Assembly (NCBI GenBank): GCA_000965745.1
Contig: CP009479.1
Span: forward strand, 1,280,001-1,344,000
Origin: an uncultured archaeon
GTDB taxonomy: Archaea; Thermoplasmatota; Thermoplasmata; Thermoplasmatales; Thermoplasmataceae
DNA length: 64,000 nucleotides
Reading direction: 5' to 3'
The notes under the pieces are model-generated. The model saw only the letters and a program-made list of their open reading frames with translations, made no database searches and had not been told where the DNA came from. Shown piece by piece: positions 17,987 through 27,372 of the stretch (positions are counted from its first letter, which is position 1; the number at the start of each line of letters is the position of its first letter). A program made the translations under genes and the position numbers.

Positions 17987-18033
17987 CGCCTGACTTTAAT
18001 CACCTCATGGAAGTACAAAGGTGAGGTGGAAAG

Positions 18034-18558
18034 ATGAAAGTTATTGTTGTTTACGACTCGATGTACGGTAATACGAGAAAGATTGCCGAATCAATCTCGA
18101 GTGCGTTTGATGGAACAGAGTGTATAAAAACGCTTCATGTTGAAAAGGCAACACCAGAGGATCTGAAAGGCTTTAGTCTCATTATCATTGGCTCTCCGAC
18201 CCATGGTGGGAGGCCAACGCCAGCTGTACATAAATTCATGGATAACCTGCCGGGCGCAGTCAAGAACGATGTCCATTTCGCATCCTTTGACACCAGATTC
18301 TCGGTTAAGGAACAGGGAGCTGGACTCAGATTCCTAATGAGATTGATCGGATACGCTGCAGAGAAAATTGACAGGAAAATGTCAGAAAAGGGGTACAAAC
18401 CAGTGGTAAAGCCTGAAGCGTTTATAGTTGTTGATAAGGAAGGCCCTCTCAGGGAAGGAGAGGAAGAAAGAGCCAGAAACTGGGGAAAAATAATAGAGGG
18501 TAAGATTGCACTACACAAAGGGGAAAATGTGACGGAACAGACACCACTCCATGGGTAG
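18034..18558 (+). CDS. Flavodoxin family protein
   Basis: 'VYDSMYGNTRKIA', 'IIGSPTHGG', 'FDTR'. Confidence 0.9.
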   Translation: MKVIVVYDSMYGNTRKIAESISSAFDGTECIKTLHVEKATPEDLKGFSLIIIGSPTHGGRPTPAVHKFMDNLPGAVKNDVHFASFDTRFSVKEQGAGLRFLMRLIGYAAEKIDRKMSEKGYKPVVKPEAFIVVDKEGPLREGEEERARNWGKIIEGKIALHKGENVTEQTPLHG

Positions 18559-18680
18559 GTTGCCAACCCGTTTAAGGAGAAACATTTTTCACCGTCGATT
18601 TATAGAAAAAATCTGCCATGCCACCGGATACGGGACTTTTGGAAAAAAGAGAAGGGTCAATGAACACCGAAATCTGATTA

Positions 18681-18696
18681 ATGGGGCTGACCGGGT
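18681..18696. repeat. Distal att site (copy of the tRNA 3' end)
   Basis: Identical to 27298-27313. Confidence 0.88.
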
Positions 18697-18732
18697 ACGT
18701 CATTCAGGGTTCATTCCCGGAGGTGATGCCTG

Positions 18733-18891
18733 TTGCAGCCTGATCTGCACAACGTTAATCACATTTTTGAAGAAGGGTACAGAAGAGGGTTCAGGAAATC
18801 CGACCTGAACGAGCTCATTGAAGAATACCGGCTTGAGTACAGGGATGAGCCAAAAACTCTGCTGCAACTTCTTCTGGGGGTGGTATCCTGA
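18733..18891 (+). CDS. Small hypothetical element protein (52 aa)
   Basis: GGAGGTGA SD then TTG; MQPDLHNVNHIFEEGYRRGF...LLLGVVS. Confidence 0.55.
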   Translation: MQPDLHNVNHIFEEGYRRGFRKSDLNELIEEYRLEYRDEPKTLLQLLLGVVS

Positions 18892-19151
18892 TCATAAGGG
18901 ATTTCAACGATCAGGTTGCATACCACAGAGAAAGGGCCTTAACAGCCGTCTCCAATGACTTCAGGAACGCGACTAGCGAGTTGTGGACCTACATCAAGCT
19001 GAGCGGGAAGGCTACCCACGAGGAGCTGATGTATGTCACCACTGAAGAGAAGTCTCAGGAATATCTGAAAAAGGTGGTGAAATCATACCAGGGCTCCTGG
19101 CCTATTTACAATTCTAACGTGAAGGGCTTGATCCAGGAGGTGCGTGGATGA
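18888..19151 (+). CDS. Hypothetical element protein (87 aa, apparent CTG start)
   Basis: GGGGGTGG SD, overlaps the upstream stop, and its TGA overlaps the ATG of the helicase fragment. Confidence 0.5.
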   Translation: MIIRDFNDQVAYHRERALTAVSNDFRNATSELWTYIKLSGKATHEELMYVTTEEKSQEYLKKVVKSYQGSWPIYNSNVKGLIQEVRG

Positions 19152-19562
19152 GCGATATCACAGGCAGTCTGCTACACAGGGGCTCCTCAATCACTCCGGT
19201 TGAGATCGAGCCGGGGAAAATAAAATTATCCGATCTCGAACAGAGGAACATTATAATTGGCCGGCCTGGCACAGGGAAGACCACAACCTTGAAGGAAATC
19301 ATCGGGGAGTTCCTGAACAGGGGGAACTCACCATCCGAGCTTCTTTACCTCACATACAGCAGGGCAATGGCCTCAGACGCGAGAGAGAAAATCGGGCTGA
19401 AAAGGCACCAGGCAGGGACCATACATTCTATTTTTTCCATAAAGCTGGGCTGGAGGCACTCAAAGAACCCGAACAAATCCGCGTTTCTTTCTGACAAAGA
19501 TATGAGCGATTTCGCAGAGGAATACGGGATCAGGAAAAAATTCAAGGCAAGGCCCAGGGAAG
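19148..19562 (+). pseudogene. Truncated UvrD/REP superfamily I helicase
   Basis: 'IIGRPGTGKTT', 'LTYSRAMA', 'GTIHS'. Runs into intron-derived sequence at about 19563. Confidence 0.8.
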
Positions 19563-19845
19563 AGCACGGAAACACTCATCAAGGAGCTCAACGTCCTCGT
19601 AAGAAGATGGACAGACTACTTTAATCATGCGACAAGGCAGTACGAGAGCCTCCAAAACTTTGTCCGCTGGAAGGTCTCAAAATTTTACTGCGACTTGCAC
19701 AAGATTCCACGAGTCTCTAAAAGAAAGGAGTACGTAGGTATTGCGGCTACCTCCGGTTTAATAAGAATGGCAAGTAGGAGATCCTATCCATACACCGCAT
19801 GGTGAAGCACACCGGAAAGGCGTATTCGGAAAAATCGACCGTACG

Positions 19846-21798
19846 GTTTGGCACGCCGAGGAATACATATAATCAACCAATGTAAGTTTGGTACTGGAAA
19901 TTGCTGGTTTATCCAGTTAGCTACCAACGCAGTTAGTGGGGTGATCTACTGGCTGAAGTTGTTGGGATGCGAACCTGCAAGCCGTAGCGAGAGCGAACAC
20001 GATGTAGCACCGAGAGGTGTAGGAGGGAAGGCCGAAGATGTCGAACCGGCCTGAAGGCTATCATCGCATGGGAAGAGAACCAGAGGGCCATGCGGCTTCC
20101 CCGGTGTTTCAGTGGCGGCGGGCAGCGAAGGCCATGTGGGATAACTCGGGAGAACACACGGCGTCCTACCGTATTCATGGGGAGAGAATAGAGAGCTCTA
20201 ATGCGAGCCAATATTCGGGATACGAGCAGGTAGCCGGACCTATAACCCAAAAGGGAAATGGAGGCAATGCGCCGTGTGTAGTCGGAGTGGTTCATAGTAC
20301 TTATGACAGTGGGGACAGCATAACCTCACCAGAGGGAAGGGACCATACTCGGAACACGATCGTTCACAACCCGGGAGAGACCCATTCCCGAAAGGGTAGG
20401 AGGTCATAGCATGCTCGAAGGGTTGCAGGACGGTCTCTACCGGAGGGCTAAGGAAAACAAGGATGCTAGATTCAACACGCTCCATGACAAGATATACAGA
20501 ATGGACGTGCTGCAAGAGGCATGGAGACTGGTATGGGAAAACAGGGGATCGGAAGGTGTAGACAACCAGACGCTTGATGACATAAGAGAAGAAGGGATAG
20601 AACAACTGCTTGAACAGATACAGCATGAACTCAAAACAGGCACCTACAGGGCATCATGTGTCAGGAGGGTATTCATCCCGAAATCAAGCGGAAAACTCAG
20701 GCCGCTCGGTATACCAACAGTCAAGGATCGCATAGTGCAGCAGGCAGTTAAGTTGATCATTGAGCCCATATTCGAAGCAGATTTCTTGGAATTCAGCTAC
20801 GGATACAGGCCAAACAGATCGGCAAAAGACGCCTCTCTAGAAATATACAAGTGGCTCAACTACGGTCTCACCAACATAGTAGACGTCGATATAGAAGGCT
20901 TCTTCGACCACATAGATCATGAGCTTCTCCTCAAATTCGTGAAGGAAAGGGTCACGGACGGATACATACTTTCACTCATAAAACAGTGGCTCAAGGCGGG
21001 CATAGTATACGGAAAATCTGTGACAAATCCAACGGAAGGCACGCCTCAGGGGGTGTCATTTCTCCGTTGATTGCAAACACATATCTCAACAAGCTTGACC
21101 ACGCATGGGCTGAGATGAACATGGACAGCAATACAGGGCACAATGCGCACCTGATCAGATACGCGGATGATATTCTGGTGTTGACAGACGATGCACGCTC
21201 CTTCACCTTCAGTGGAAAGAATCACGCAAGGAACGTCATGAAGATCCTCTGGATGCTCGTAGGGAAGCTGAAGCTCAAATTGAGTGAAAGCAAATCCCGT
21301 ATAACAACCGCAGAGGAAGGTTTTGATTTCCTTGGGTTCCACTTCCTCAGGAGGTACTGGGAGAGATACGGAAAATGTGTATCCAGATTCTTCCCGTCGA
21401 AGAAATCTGAACTTAATTACAAGGCAAAGGTGAGTGAGATCACATCAAGACGACACGCGCACACAAAGAGCGAGGATGACGTAATCAGGGAATTGGACCA
21501 GCTCACAATAGGCTGGACAAACTACTATAACCACAGCCATGCATCGGAAACGTACGCAAAGCTCTGGAATTTCCTCTGCTGGAGACTAACGCAGTTCATC
21601 AGGTACAGGCACAAGCGCCGTAGCCTCGCTGTGGATTACGTCAGGCTGCGATCCTATGGCCTCATGCCCCCATACGGAAGAATAAGGCATAATTATACCG
21701 TGTGCCCACGGTGAAGTTCCCCGGATAGCCGGATTCGGGAAAACTGACAGTCCGGTTAGAGGCGGAAGGGTCAGGAGAAATCCTGATCTTTACCCCAC
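19846..21798 (+). mobile_element. Inner group II intron (IIB-like) encoding an RT/maturase
   Basis: D3-like GGAGTGGTTCATAGTAC...GAAGGGACCATACT at about 20285-20349, D5 AGCCGGAT...GTCCGGTT at 21727-21757, D6 ending ACCCCAC at 21798. 5' boundary uncertain (19846-19851). Confidence 0.82.
20411..21714 (+). pseudogene. ltrA: Group II intron reverse transcriptase/maturase with a one-base frameshift, no endonuclease domain
   Basis: 'RPLGIPTVKDR', 'SYGYRP', 'VDIEGFFD', TPQG|GVISP split at G5 21049-21053, 'RYADD', 'FDFLGF', 'GWTNYY'. Confidence 0.9.
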
Positions 21799-21883
21799 GG
21801 GAACTGGAAATGGAGTCAGAGGATAACCGCAATGACTGGTTGTCATGGTATTGTTAGGAAACTCTGTGACCACTGCACTTGCT

Positions 21884-23327
21884 CTATACTCGACTGACCG
21901 CACACATAACTGACCTATTACGGTTGTAACCCCATATGAAACCCAACGTTGTTGTGTCACTTCCGCCATATAGTGACCCAGTGTCAGAACGAGGCTGAAA
22001 TTGGCCTCCTGTAGACATCCAAATAGTTACAGTGTATGTAAACGACTCGTATGTTGACTGGCTTGGTTGGAAGTTGAATTGATCCGAACTTGATTGCATT
22101 CCGAAAATATAAGCGTTCTTAAAAGTCGGGATAAAGCCCCACTTAAGGTAAGTGGATCCAATCAAATTGTAACCATATCCAGTAGCGGAGGTCCACTGAC
22201 CTGCATCTTGATTGAATATCCAAGAGTTATAATAGATCGTATCCACAGACCCTGCACTTACGACACCAAACGGGCTTATCAAAGGTACGTCGTAATAGGT
22301 TGCCACCGCAGAAATAGCTGCCCAAACAAGATCTGCAACTATCAGGGAGAGGGCACTCGAATTACCATGCTCCTGCATATCAACATTTGTCACATGAATC
22401 TTTAGCCCTTGTGGTTTGTTGCTTGGATTGTTTCCTAAAGTGTCCCCCGTCCATTTGTAAGCTTGGTTTATTTGGTTTACTCCGAAGGATGTTTGTATAG
22501 GCTGTATCGTAGTAGCTGCTTCTAAAGCAAAATTATTGTCTTCCCACTCATAATCCGAAGGTACTCTTGCGCTAAGCATAAACTTCGCTATCAGGTTCCC
22601 AGAGCTGTCGTATATCGGAGTTTTGCCAGTAGTAAACTTGTATTGACCAATTGTAGGATCAATAGTATAGGTCGCATTTCCCGGAATTTTGATGGGCGCA
22701 AAAACAAGTGTGATGTAATTTGCACCACTTGCCATAATAACGGACCCGGCAACAAAATTTGACTCCGCCCCGAGCCACGATAGAAACAACCCATTAGACC
22801 CGATCATGTAACTACCATGTGATATAGCGTAAGTTTTGCTTTGGTGTTTTCCGTTGAAATCAAATTGACCAGAGCTATTAAACCTCTTGACTGCAATAGT
22901 ATTTGAAGCAGGCATCTTTATATGTTCTACGACAATAAATGTGCTATTATGTGGTTCCTTGTTTGTTATTATAAGACTCTGCTCTAAGTCTGCCATGGTG
23001 ACAGAGTTCACTGTTCCGATCTTTGCAGTGGAGTAATTAGCACTTCTATAGATGTAGGTATGACCCTTCGGACCTTTTATTTGGGGATGCCCCAAGTTCA
23101 TGGGTAGCAAATGTTTTCCTCCGGCGACCATCTGATATACGGACCAAGATTGCTTGACATGCGATGTTCCTAGGCTAAATGAATTTTGGGACGATGTAAA
23201 CGTTAGAGTCGCAGGACCTTCTGGATAGCCGTGCGTGGTGGCATCAACGGCTAAAAATGTCAACCCACCTGTCACCATAATTACGGGCACAGCTAATGCA
23301 AGAAATTTTTTTTGTGTTCCCTATCAT
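21884..23327 (-). CDS. Secreted Ser/Thr/Asn-rich protein of unknown function; signal peptide frameshifted in an A8 run
   Basis: 468-aa ORF from 23290. ATG 23327 joins it (MIGNTKKFLALAVPVIM...) if A8 were A7. Confidence 0.65.
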
Positions 23328-23433: not shown

Positions 23434-24042
23434 TTGGGTACGTTTATGCGTGCAAAAAGAAAGAATAGCGTGAAAATATTGATAGCTATAATTCTTGCCG
23501 TTGCGGTGATAGCCCTATCAAATATTATAACGGCGCCACCAAACCTGCACCCCTCGAAAGTTTCCATATCTACTCCTTTGAATCAAGTGAATGTCTCCAA
23601 ATATAGTATATTCATGGATCCCATGGGCAGTAATACTACCTTTCAGATTGGTGGGCCTCATGCTTCCTCTAGTTATATTGCTTGGATAAATGGCCCTACA
23701 AATTACGTAGGGTCAGGAAATAATTTTGGTGTGCAAGTCTATTTGATGCAAACCTCACAAAATGTTACATCCTTATTCACAGGCAGCTCAATAAATGTTA
23801 TCCATGCAAGGTATATTCCTAATCGAGGCAATACGGTAACTTCCTATTCCGAAACTGCATACCCTGGTAGTGTGGGAGATTCCGGCATAACGATCTCCTT
23901 TAACGATCTAAGCAACGTTAACACCACGTCAACAGCAACTGTTAATATAACATTAGTTGAAGAGTCGATAATTGGCCCCTTTCATATATGGGGGCAGCAA
24001 AAGAATATTTCTTTGTCTTTAGAATTCAATATGACAAGGTAG
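23434..24042 (+). CDS. Membrane-anchored extracellular hypothetical protein
   Basis: Basic N-terminus plus TM helix, beta-rich domain with N-x-S/T sequons. Confidence 0.7.
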   Translation: MGTFMRAKRKNSVKILIAIILAVAVIALSNIITAPPNLHPSKVSISTPLNQVNVSKYSIFMDPMGSNTTFQIGGPHASSSYIAWINGPTNYVGSGNNFGVQVYLMQTSQNVTSLFTGSSINVIHARYIPNRGNTVTSYSETAYPGSVGDSGITISFNDLSNVNTTSTATVNITLVEESIIGPFHIWGQQKNISLSLEFNMTR

Positions 24043-24071: not shown

Positions 24072-24635
24072 AAGGTCTTTTTATCTTCTCCGGGCTCTTC
24101 ACGCTTCTCATGCCCCGGATCTGAAACGATGAATGTTGCATCCTGTGCCGGTCCTCGCTTCACCTAGATGCCCTTTGCTTCCAACTGCCTCTGGAGCTCG
24201 TTCCATATGACACGATCCTTTCCCGTTTCCGATAATCTCTCCCTGAAGTACAATATTGTGCGTGCATCCGGCTTCTCAGTGGTAAAATCAAGGAAATTCA
24301 TGAAAGATATTCTGTCGTGAATCTCCTTCTCGGCCTTTTCGTCAGTGAGGTTGTACAGGTTCTGCAGATACAGCACCTTGACCATTGTTATGATGGGAAT
24401 ATTCGGCCTTACTCCATTCTCTGTTTCATTGTGATACAGATCCTTGAGGAGTGGAGGGAATCTGGACCAGTCAATTGATTCCTTGGCGAATTCCAGGTGA
24501 TCATTGGCAAATATTGCTTGTACTTCCCCCTTAGAGCTGTGTAATGAGGGTCACTCATACAGTAACATGGCTGATTCATGAATAAAGATGACTGTTACTG
24601 GACCTGTTAATCTTGGGATGTTTTTGGAAATTCTC
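24072..24635 (-). pseudogene. Truncated IS5-family element
   Basis: 'VLYLQNLYNLTD...HDRISFMNFL...PDARTILYFRERL', in-frame stop, then 'QDATFI'. IR-like end GAGAATTTCCAAAAAC at 24635. Confidence 0.75.
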
Positions 24636-24882
24636 ACGAGTCTCAAGCCATAGCAGACTTACAATTTTTCGTTGCGAGATGTTATCCATATTTTTGACAA
24701 TGCCCCCTTTAAAACAATGTTACCTACAGAGCAGCAGTCAAGGCAAGCCTGAAAGGGTTATCCCAGCCAGTTTCAACTACTCTTTACTTTTTCTTCATTA
24801 ACATTTTAGATGGATAGTTACGGTTTGAACTGTATTTGACTGAAACTCTAACGTTATTGATATGCCCGCACTAAACTAATGA

Positions 24883-26347
24883 CCTGACTTTCTCCTATCT
24901 TTTATACACTAGGTTCCTGATCTCCTCCTGTTTCTTTGACAGTTCAACATTTGCACCCCACTCCATGCCGGATTCAGAATCTTTCAGCTCAACCCTGTAC
25001 CCATGGCTAAGGATGTCAAGTGCATCCGATCCGGAGATTCCTGTCTTTTCTATCCTGTACTGCAGTGTCGCAAGGATGGCGTACGAGAGATAGCAGATCT
25101 TTATGTGCGCATTCACGTGGGAGAGCATCCAGAACCTCACTGGCCTTAGGGACAGTATGCCCTTCATCTGTTTGAACGCCCTCTCCACCACATTCTTGGC
25201 ATAGTATTTTTTCACAACATCCGCATCTTCCATGCCTGTGTTGTGATATATGAGCGAATATCCCAACAGGGACGCGATTTCCTCATCCTCAGAGTGATCG
25301 TAATAATGCTCCCTCCTGATGGATTCAAGATACGGATTGTACACAACAATGAGTTTTCCGGACAGGAAGTCCATGGATTGCGTATAGACATGCGTGTTTC
25401 GCAGCTCGATGCGATTTCCCTTCCTGTATACCCTGCTTTTGTCGATCTTGAGCAGAATGTCCCTGAAACTCTTATTCTTCACGACGCCGCATATTATCTT
25501 CATGCGAAGCTCAAGTGCATCATCTATATTCTTCCGGGAATAGAAGCCACGGTCCAGGATGACTGCTGAATAGCCCTTCTCCTTCAGCAGTGAGATCATC
25601 TCCCTGTACATTCGTTTTCCGGAGATATTTCCTCCGTGCGTGCGGTGGAAGAGCGGAAAACCATGATCCTCTGTGACAGCAAGGGCGATCTGCACCAGCT
25701 TCTTCACCTTCTCCTCCTTGCCCCTGCGTGCCTTGCCTTCAATGCTGTCACCTTCGAAATATGTGTCTGTTACATCGATTATGACTGCATTCCTGTCATC
25801 AATGGACGAGAAGATTCCTGACAGTGATTCCTCCATCCTGGAGAAATCCATCTCATTCAGGGTGTCCAGGGAATCGTAAAGCCTTGCTGTACTTGTGGCT
25901 TTGATGCCAAGGATATCAAGCATGTCCGTGTATGAGAGCCACTCCTCCATCCTGTTGATCGACGGACGATCAAGAAGCTGCGAATACACAAGGATCAGGA
26001 TCTCACTGTCGAGACTGGTGATTCCCAGATCAGAGGCGATCCTGTGGATTATTTCAATGTCAAGATGCTTCCGGACTGCCTGTACCTGTACGGAAGAGGA
26101 CATGATCCTCCTGACCACCTCTCCCTCAACGTCCTTGCCTATGTACCTGATGACCTTCTGCCTGGTTCTGCCATTCTCCCACACAGATTCCACCTCGGCA
26201 AGATATGTCCCTGAAGGCTTCTTGATCTTCCGTATGAAGGACATGATGTATAAGATATACATCATGCAGTTATTAAAGCTATCTACAATAAAGCAGTGAA
26301 TAACAAGGTCACAAAGCATGATGTATAAAATGGGTCAAAAACTTAGG
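24883..26347 (-). mobile_element. Complete IS1634-family insertion sequence
   Basis: Ends CCTGACTTT / CCTAAGTTT and 6-bp TSD TAATGA at 24877-24882 and 26348-26353. Confidence 0.85.
24895..26244 (-). CDS. IS1634-family transposase
   Basis: 'MSFIRKIKK..GTYLAEVES', 'IDVTDTYFEG', 'ILDRGF', 'VERAFKQMK..L.LRP', 'VNAHIKICYL'. Confidence 0.88.
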   Translation of the reverse strand: MSFIRKIKKPSGTYLAEVESVWENGRTRQKVIRYIGKDVEGEVVRRIMSSSVQVQAVRKHLDIEIIHRIASDLGITSLDSEILILVYSQLLDRPSINRMEEWLSYTDMLDILGIKATSTARLYDSLDTLNEMDFSRMEESLSGIFSSIDDRNAVIIDVTDTYFEGDSIEGKARRGKEEKVKKLVQIALAVTEDHGFPLFHRTHGGNISGKRMYREMISLLKEKGYSAVILDRGFYSRKNIDDALELRMKIICGVVKNKSFRDILLKIDKSRVYRKGNRIELRNTHVYTQSMDFLSGKLIVVYNPYLESIRREHYYDHSEDEEIASLLGYSLIYHNTGMEDADVVKKYYAKNVVERAFKQMKGILSLRPVRFWMLSHVNAHIKICYLSYAILATLQYRIEKTGISGSDALDILSHGYRVELKDSESGMEWGANVELSKKQEEIRNLVYKR

Positions 26348-26466: not shown

Positions 26467-27339
26467 GTGCTGAATCCAAAACAGGGAGAGGTCAACACAT
26501 ACTTCCAGAAGAGGATAAGAGACACATCACTTTCAAAGACCACGATCATAGCTGAAGTGAATGATCTCAGACTGTTCTGGAATGGATACCTTGAGCTAGG
26601 AATAAAGCTCCTTCCGTTAAAGACACCTCCAGAGAAGGACGTATGGATACCAACTGACCAGGAGGTTATCAGGATAATGAAGGCAGCGGAGCATTCAAGC
26701 GCTGACAAGGGAATAGCGCTCAGGAATTCACTGATCACCAGGATGTTCTTCCTCGGCTGCATGAGAGTTGGGGAAATGATGAGGATCCGCTTAAACGACG
26801 TAGATTTTGAGTTGGGCGGTGTCAATATCAGGTCAGAAAAGGGTGAAGCTGATCGTTTTGTCGGTTTCCATCCGGACATCTTGAAAGACCTGAAAACTTA
26901 ATTGAATGTTTACAGACCCCGCACTACATTCACTCAGCTCTGGATCGCGACGAAAAAGGGAAAAACCCAGAGTTCTGTGGAGCCTATCACCTACGCTGGG
27001 CTTCGGAAGCTATCCAAGGTCATGGGGCTTTCCGCAGGCGTGACCCAATTCCATTGGCATGCTGCGAGGCACTGGGGCGCAACAGCCTATCTATATGGGC
27101 GTCTGGGAGTACCACCGTTGGGAATCAGATCGGTTCAAAAACTTCTCGGTCATGTGTCATTAAAGACGACTCAGAGGTATACTCACGTCACAGACAGGGA
27201 CGTTGCAAAAGAGGTGATATCCGCGCAAAGAAAATTATTTCGCGGGCATGAAAAAAATGAGGGATTAAGGGGCGTGAAAGCCCCTATACCGAACCCTATG
27301 GGGCTGACCGGGTTTGAACCGATGACCACCTGGTTATGA
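26467..27339 (+). pseudogene. int: Tyrosine recombinase/integrase with one in-frame TAA (26899-26901)
   Basis: 'GCMRVGE', 'SEKG', 'HAARH', 'LLGH', 'TQRYTH' in the same frame across the stop. The C-terminus runs through att into the antisense tRNA. Confidence 0.88.
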
Positions 27340-27372
27340 GCCAGGCGCTCTACCTAGCTGAGCTACAGCCCC
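27299..27372 (-). tRNA. tRNA with CAU anticodon, probably tRNA-Ile2 (agmatidine-modified)
   Basis: Cloverleaf GGGGCTG...CCTGG CTCATAA CCAGG...CAGCCCCA. Ile versus elongator Met is inferred from the sequence and from pairing with tRNA-Asn. Confidence 0.85.

Follow-up and report, generated by a model that had tools for sequence, protein, structure and literature searches.

A relic nest of group II introns in a Thermoplasmatales genome, and a lineage of introns with guides probably aimed at the domain V end of other group II introns

Group II introns lodged within other group II introns have been described in several systems. The chloroplast psbF gene of Euglena gracilis carries a group II intron whose domain V is interrupted by a second group II intron (PMC8393795, citing Copertino and Hallick 1991), and for the nested introns of Methanosarcina acetivorans PMC4424553, citing Dai and Zimmerly (2003), describes repeated site-specific homing into group II introns, deletions by recombination and a perpetual homing site. 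In Thermosynechococcus elongatus, TeI3 introns (family F3) enter TeI4 introns (F1), the families having arisen by EBS divergence with one of them aimed at introns, and identical guests in diverged hosts were read there as independent insertions (PMC2882425). The Trichodesmium introns Tr.e.I7/I8 splice sequentially, inner one first, and their authors point out that insertion at a position on which host splicing depends should keep the guest in place (PMC4649490). Group IIC introns, in turn, target terminators and attC sites (PMC3753933, together with general knowledge). Surveys would miss nests of the kind reported below, because loci containing multiple introns are thrown out by one pipeline (PMC4028801), outer introns are invisible to a second (PMC8919778), and the Rfam model for domains V and VI, RF00029, leaves the inner domain V of our locus unlisted.

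The locus lies in what we call the window, the whole 64,000-nucleotide stretch analyzed (CP009479.1, positions 1,280,001 to 1,344,000; G000:C1:1280001-1344000) from the single-contig, 2.23-Mb genome of an uncultured archaeon of the Thermoplasmataceae. It contains an RT-encoding intron, B, nested in the remains of another, A. We regard it as highly probable that B comes from a Thermoplasmatales sub-lineage of IIB-type introns that lack an endonuclease and have guides aimed at the domain V end of other group II introns, where they have homed repeatedly, and that the copy in the window is a relic. The nest is housed in an 8.6-kb integrated element with a copy of a 16-bp repeat at either end (18681 and 27298); the left attachment repeat (18681..18696) is identical to the right one (27298..27313), which is located at the 3' end of a tRNA (27299-27372). 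Features named here and below are on the plus strand unless stated otherwise. Integrase and transposase remains stand beside the nest in the same element: the tyrosine integrase gene (26467-27339), with XerA-like matches, is interrupted by an in-frame stop codon (26899-26901), and an IS1634 transposase together with a short transposase-like fragment occupies 24164-26319 on the minus strand. Of two further ORFs, one of 468 aa (21884-23290, minus strand) has no NCBIfam or Pfam family and overlaps, on the opposite strand, the end of the long domain VI discussed below; the other, of 202 aa (23434-24042), has no NCBIfam family. In another genome of the same family (G006), locus L003 matches L100, an intron annotated in E-plasma, which confirms the archaeal, Thermoplasmatales origin of the host organism.

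The sequence-only reading of this DNA had placed a maturase X-domain tail, missed by the ORF track, at 19563-19805, followed by a domain V-like hairpin with AGG in place of the catalytic AGC, and both are borne out. The tail (19560..19805; GIIM, PF08388, 25.7 bits with the cut-off at 23) comprises the last 80 codons of a maturase, is uncovered by the ORF calls, and shows 60-62% identity to P0070/P0088, 55% to the same-genome sibling P0113 and 35% to the inner IEP. Next comes domain V of intron A, at 19817..19849 (HMM E = 5e-5, consistent with its fold) with the triad AGG at 19818-19820, and 46 of the 49 bases in 19802-19850 match L220. AGG as a lineage trait was ruled out, the closest relatives keeping AGC; as the change also breaks a pair, it is attributable to decay. 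All upstream parts of the intron are lost, including domains I to IV and the RT, and a UvrD-like helicase gene (5' fragment, 19148..19559; PF00580, E = 3e-8), broken at about 19559, is fused by deletion to the remnant, intron similarity starting from about 19560. Judged by these sequence features intron A is a relic in the window, and in L203-like copies the outer host is possibly functional.

Intron B extends over 19851..21798 (1948 nt, 5' GCACG, 3' AC), with boundaries drawn from EBS1/IBS1 covariation and the alignment columns of L132, in a family with lengths of 1867-1948 nt. An ORF-less member of the family, 702 nt long and with complete ends, is present at L005:1501-2202 (G015). The earlier claim of a near-complete second intron ending at 21798 holds: B possesses a domain I core (19883..20116; RF02005, 72.3 bits against 49), an RT/maturase ORF with a YADD motif and without an endonuclease domain (20411..21714; RVT_1 and GIIM, 434 aa), a domain V (21726..21758; HMM E = 3e-6, consistent with its fold) with the AGC intact at 21727-21729, and a linker with a short domain VI (21760..21798; short-D6 HMM E = 1e-12) with the bulged A at 21792. 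The RT ORF is frameshifted, being one base short in the G run at 21049-21053, a lesion absent from the earlier description of the locus; contigs bridging the locus have no indel there. The intact IEP of the relative P0002 passes TIGR04416 (397.9 against 300).

As had been noted, B lacks the canonical 5' GUGYG. It begins GCACG, most family members begin GCRSG and L132 begins GTGCG. The intact same-genome sibling and most relatives start with GCACG or GCGCG, in a relative from the Bathyarchaeota these columns read GTGCG, and B therefore starts at 19851, one base past domain V of A; on this alignment, GCACG is a lineage variant. An interim 5' end, TGGCA at 19849, was dropped. Two earlier suggestions, that GTTTG might be the inner 5' end and that about 10 nt were deleted at the 5' junction, are set aside by this intact, family-normal end, and any loss would be on the 3' side. 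A D5 HMM built from 80 other domains V, and short and long D6 HMMs built from other loci, detected across the locus two D5, one short D6 (that of B, the one significant match to this model in the region) and one weak long D6. The expectation of two D5 and two D6 hits is thus confirmed for both D5 by HMM and for one short D6, but the outer D5 scores only 22.4 bits with RF00029, below the cut-off of 40, and the long D6 is weak (E = 0.03).

That long-type domain VI (21799..21894) directly adjoins B: the D5/D6 linker is absent 3' of B, and the first base, 21799, is G, against the A predicted by the EBS3 of B. Its end matches that of a domain VI in L205 at 21 of 23 positions (E = 0.005) and also resembles L223, and a search for its relatives in 169 genomes returned only its own copy. 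The outer domain VI that had been claimed to end at 21894 is therefore present as a D6-like element with weak statistics but is probably not A's own, belonging rather to a third intron, C; likewise, the archaeal twintron at a D5/D6 junction stands as a nest, but the two-intron model of it is probably one intron short. In the three-intron version, which is the simplest account and which we give an even chance, A would have sat at the start of domain VI of C, B would have entered domain V of A, and recombination between the short domains VI of B and A, lying side by side, would have removed that of A. It requires a second insertion near a D5/D6 junction, domain VI of B carries no sign of a mosaic and no close relative of C was seen in the 169 genomes; in its favor, those relatives of A with a visible domain VI carry the short type, the short model has its single significant match in B, EBS3 is C in the relatives L001 and L220 of A, in agreement with G as base 21799, and L233 represents such a collapse between tandem domains. 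A small 3' deletion or an exchange of domain V is about as likely. With two introns only, 4-6 linker bases would have been lost 3' of B, or C would be the true host with its domain V replaced by that of A via recombination. Such a version needs fewer elements, accords with the decay throughout the locus and finds a parallel in L223, where a clade member is followed by a linker and a long domain VI; yet no relative of A with a long domain VI was observed and the rejoined D5 and D6 fold poorly, which puts it slightly short of an even chance.

To identify the guides, domain I of 16 family introns was aligned and every six-base helix was scanned against the 5' exon. Covariation across the 16 introns places EBS1 at 20042..20047 (CGAACC, the complement of the domain V end GGTTCG), the helix with exon positions -1 to -6 being 0.84 paired, against 0.35 +/- 0.05 with exons shuffled among introns (maximum 0.58 in 2000). 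In the window it forms six of six pairs, one of them G.U, with IBS1 (GGTTTG, 19845..19850), which consists of the last five bases of domain V plus one. Column 20109 is the best predictor of exon base +1, with which it pairs in 9/10 introns, and its U, the EBS3 (20109..20109), predicts an A as in the D5/D6 linker. With these two guides B therefore reads GGTTYG|A, a sequence that stands at the end of 79 of the 113 different D5 hairpins among the loci retrieved. The candidate EBS2 at 20016..20020 is uncertain, the best family helix (five pairs) being 0.54 paired, barely above shuffles, with 0.51 for the best six-pair shuffled helix. The proposed EBS1/EBS2 pairing to the D5-D6 linker is thereby upheld for EBS1, which pairs with the D5 end, and for EBS3, which predicts the linker A; EBS2 is a candidate. 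Because the heptamer GGTTYGA occurs 486 times in the genome of the window and EBS2 is weak, further specificity must come from the protein, from that weak EBS2 or from the upper part of the D5 hairpin, the last being a candidate by likeness to IIC introns.

The host D5 of L013 has CGTTCG at its end, and the guest there has EBS1 CGAACG, again with six of six pairs. Only two of the introns at D5 sites show an intact EBS1: L223 is a chimera, and the EBS1 of L015 was unusable owing to a deletion in domain I. The domain V of B itself ends GGTTAG, mismatching its own EBS1. Self-avoidance as a clade trait found no support, because the non-targeting relatives L020, L102 and L221 share this end, and in L223 and L224, which do belong to the clade, the end reads GGTTTG|A. 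The sibling L001, an intact intron of 1898 nt (G000:C1 712545-710648, minus strand) just upstream of an IS3-like transposase start codon, has EBS1 CCCCAA and EBS3 C.

The IEP of B contains only RVT_1 and GIIM and no En domain, which fits classes D, E, F and g1-g6; many of its distant matches are actinobacterial, and assignment to class g1 is a lead only. The six-base EBS1-IBS1 and the EBS3-IBS3 pairings are IIB features. B is not a group IIC intron, because its EBS1 has six bases, its triad is AGC and its domain V is of full length (33 nt), as opposed to the short EBS1, CGC triad and shortened domain V of that group. As in a twintron, an X tail and domain V lie upstream of B and a D6-like element downstream, and in relatives the host parts rejoin exactly.

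The clade of B comprises nine IEP rows (SH-aLRT 100), which amount to six distinct introns after near-identical copies are merged. Four of these six are at, or adjoin, a D5/D6 junction, against none of 16 out-of-clade relatives with an IEP and a visible flank, in a site survey that did not take in the flanks of P0001, the closest relative; the Fisher p of ~0.002, from a run with 17 out-of-clade relatives, is overstated because kin are not independent. The junction-sited introns are that of the window, P0005 (L015), the P0002/P0128 group (L013, L099, L202, L203, L207, L208) and P0135 (L223), for which only the 3' side is visible and the site is apparently one base upstream. Many copies were drawn from a few related samples, and survival bias toward harmless sites could inflate the share at domain V. 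The hosts differ: that of the window is a member of B's wider family, those of L013, L015 and L203 are from a distant lineage (73% to L188), a common one that 21 of the order's 169 genomes contain, and that of L223 is a long-D6 intron. L015 minus its guest gives a gap-free alignment with the empty host L189 (87%), L237 is an empty allele of the locus filled in L208, and no bases were gained or lost at insertions where an empty allele was comparable. The guests are 97-100% identical; the host domains VI and flanks differ, a contrast like the one taken for independent insertion in PMC2882425. Guide complementarity, exact boundaries, recurrence and insertion polymorphism are all directly observed, and relatives of B would land repeatedly past domain V because their guide bases match the conserved hairpin end.

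Targeting is not fixed in the clade, and the guide is retargetable, as follows from the two members off domain V: P0004 (L224) has EBS1 TGGATT, with a non-D5 target and a six of six match to its own site, and in P0003 (L014, L222) an unrelated gene start follows the intron. The out-of-clade relatives with nameable targets are all in IS elements. The sequence-only reading had proposed that the intron may target the most conserved ribozyme segment of other group II introns, a putative safe haven, and had named copies in unrelated targets as what would speak against it; the guide matching the D5 end, the recurrent sites and the locus seen both empty and filled sustain the proposal for four of the six, but the other two do lie elsewhere, one of them with a retargeted EBS1. 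A scan of 401 genomes for the 3' junction pattern gave one true match (L219 = L099), no more than the control; viral contigs gave no match, and in about 150 distant loci, most of them from bacteria, a crude test by regular expression recovered no insertion in D5.

Several loci have further layers. In L013 two domains VI stand in tandem 3' of the guest (2332-2455), and the host itself appears to interrupt the 3' strand of an L184-type domain V, its site being four bases upstream of that of the guest; elsewhere this host is found between unrelated flanks. L233 (2290-2440), L205 (4480-4575) and L239 are host-guest recombination chimeras, in which the host ORF and guest D5/D6 are followed by the host D6, and such nests may shuffle D5/D6 between lineages. 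In L223 (1-330) an L101-type intron lies in domain I of another intron, which interrupts an RT ORF, and the 522-aa protein called there is a chimera of two IEPs. In L237, L264, L013 and L203 the host D5 is a variant whose catalytic helix has changed in a compensatory manner (AGCGCAAT pairing with TTGCGTT); copies with and without a guest have it.

The concentration at domain V might also reflect insertion of low specificity followed by selection, with many GGTTYG|A sites entered and survivors persisting only in dispensable introns. The 486 heptamers, the weak EBS2 and the two clade members off D5 agree with such a course; nevertheless it seems improbable to us, given that the two copies in which a CGAACN guide can be seen both lie at D5, that harmless IS-element and intergenic sites abound and do harbor other members of the family, and that the L013 guide matches a rare host D5 variant. 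A single ancestral insertion, propagated through recombination or in the form of a composite twintron and not through repeated homing, is very improbable: most filled copies do share one L188/L189-like host type and recombined chimeras (L233, L205) exist, but the host lineage in the window differs from that in L013/L015, L223 has a long-D6 host, near-identical guests sit in diverged hosts, and the empty/filled pair at one locus largely refutes it. The chance that the nest is an assembly artefact is very small, for although misjoins are common at repeats and the runs that bridge the locus are possibly the source samples, 18000-23000 is spanned by single contigs from two runs with zero letter differences, and the D5/D6 junction recurs in unrelated samples.

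With repeated, guide-directed homing to the D5 end as the preferred reading, a mechanism may be sketched, in which both the splicing and the homing of B are predicted from sequence. By analogy with group IIB biology, the lariat RNP would reverse-splice into host intron DNA at D5+1, and the RT would copy the inserted RNA with a replication-fork primer. From its position, the insert would separate D5 from D6, and the host would splice after the guest leaves, as in the Trichodesmium twintron. As D5-D6 joining would await guest splicing, mobile copies of the host would leave guest-free and supply fresh empty targets. In the window, B would have entered domain V of intron A, subsequent deletions leaving a dead relic. 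It is conceivable, if rather unlikely, that an arms race between introns is being played out at the catalytic core, with host domains V escaping through compensatory changes in their helix, the guest EBS1 following, and the guest curbing the spread of other group II introns irrespective of class. This reading is based on two guide alleles (CGAACC and CGAACG) and few host alleles, the D5 end changing from GGTTCG to CGTTCG in empty and filled hosts.

A guide to the D5 end would make targets of most other group II introns, whatever their class (70% of sampled D5s), with new empty targets arising whenever a host intron moves, and would render its bearer a parasite of introns generally rather than of one gene or sister family. 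Such a system allows tests of ordered splicing with IBS1 in the host catalytic helix, of intron conflict and of D5 variation. The finding concerns the lineage, the window copy being a relic.

Our literature search, incomplete for the primary twintron papers, turned up no report of a lineage with guides matching the D5/D6 junction, and an earlier description is possible. The psbF twintron likewise has a group II intron in the D5 region of its host; it is, however, a single organellar case, whereas B represents an RT-encoding archaeal lineage that recurs just past domain V in several hosts and has a matching guide. With the Methanosarcina nests B shares an archaeal setting, repeated homing into introns, deletions by recombination and a perpetual homing site. 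The targets there are reportedly intron ORFs, to go by the title of Dai and Zimmerly (2003), whereas that of B is the ribozyme core common to intron classes. As in TeI3/TeI4, EBS divergence has yielded an intron-aimed family, and identical guests occur in diverged hosts; the TeI3 guests, though, are ORF-less and enter between two ATGs of a sister-family ORF, in contrast to an autonomous B that enters distant lineages at D5+1. Inner-first sequential splicing, demonstrated for Tr.e.I7/I8, a single case of insertion in domain I, is predicted for B from its sequence. Like group IIC introns, B has no endonuclease, a target class with many loci and a hairpin just upstream of the site, and is unlike them in its six-base EBS1, AGC triad and full-length domain V. 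Twintrons, homing into introns and one insertion in domain V were thus known, and a lineage aimed at the D5/D6 junction appears to be the new part.
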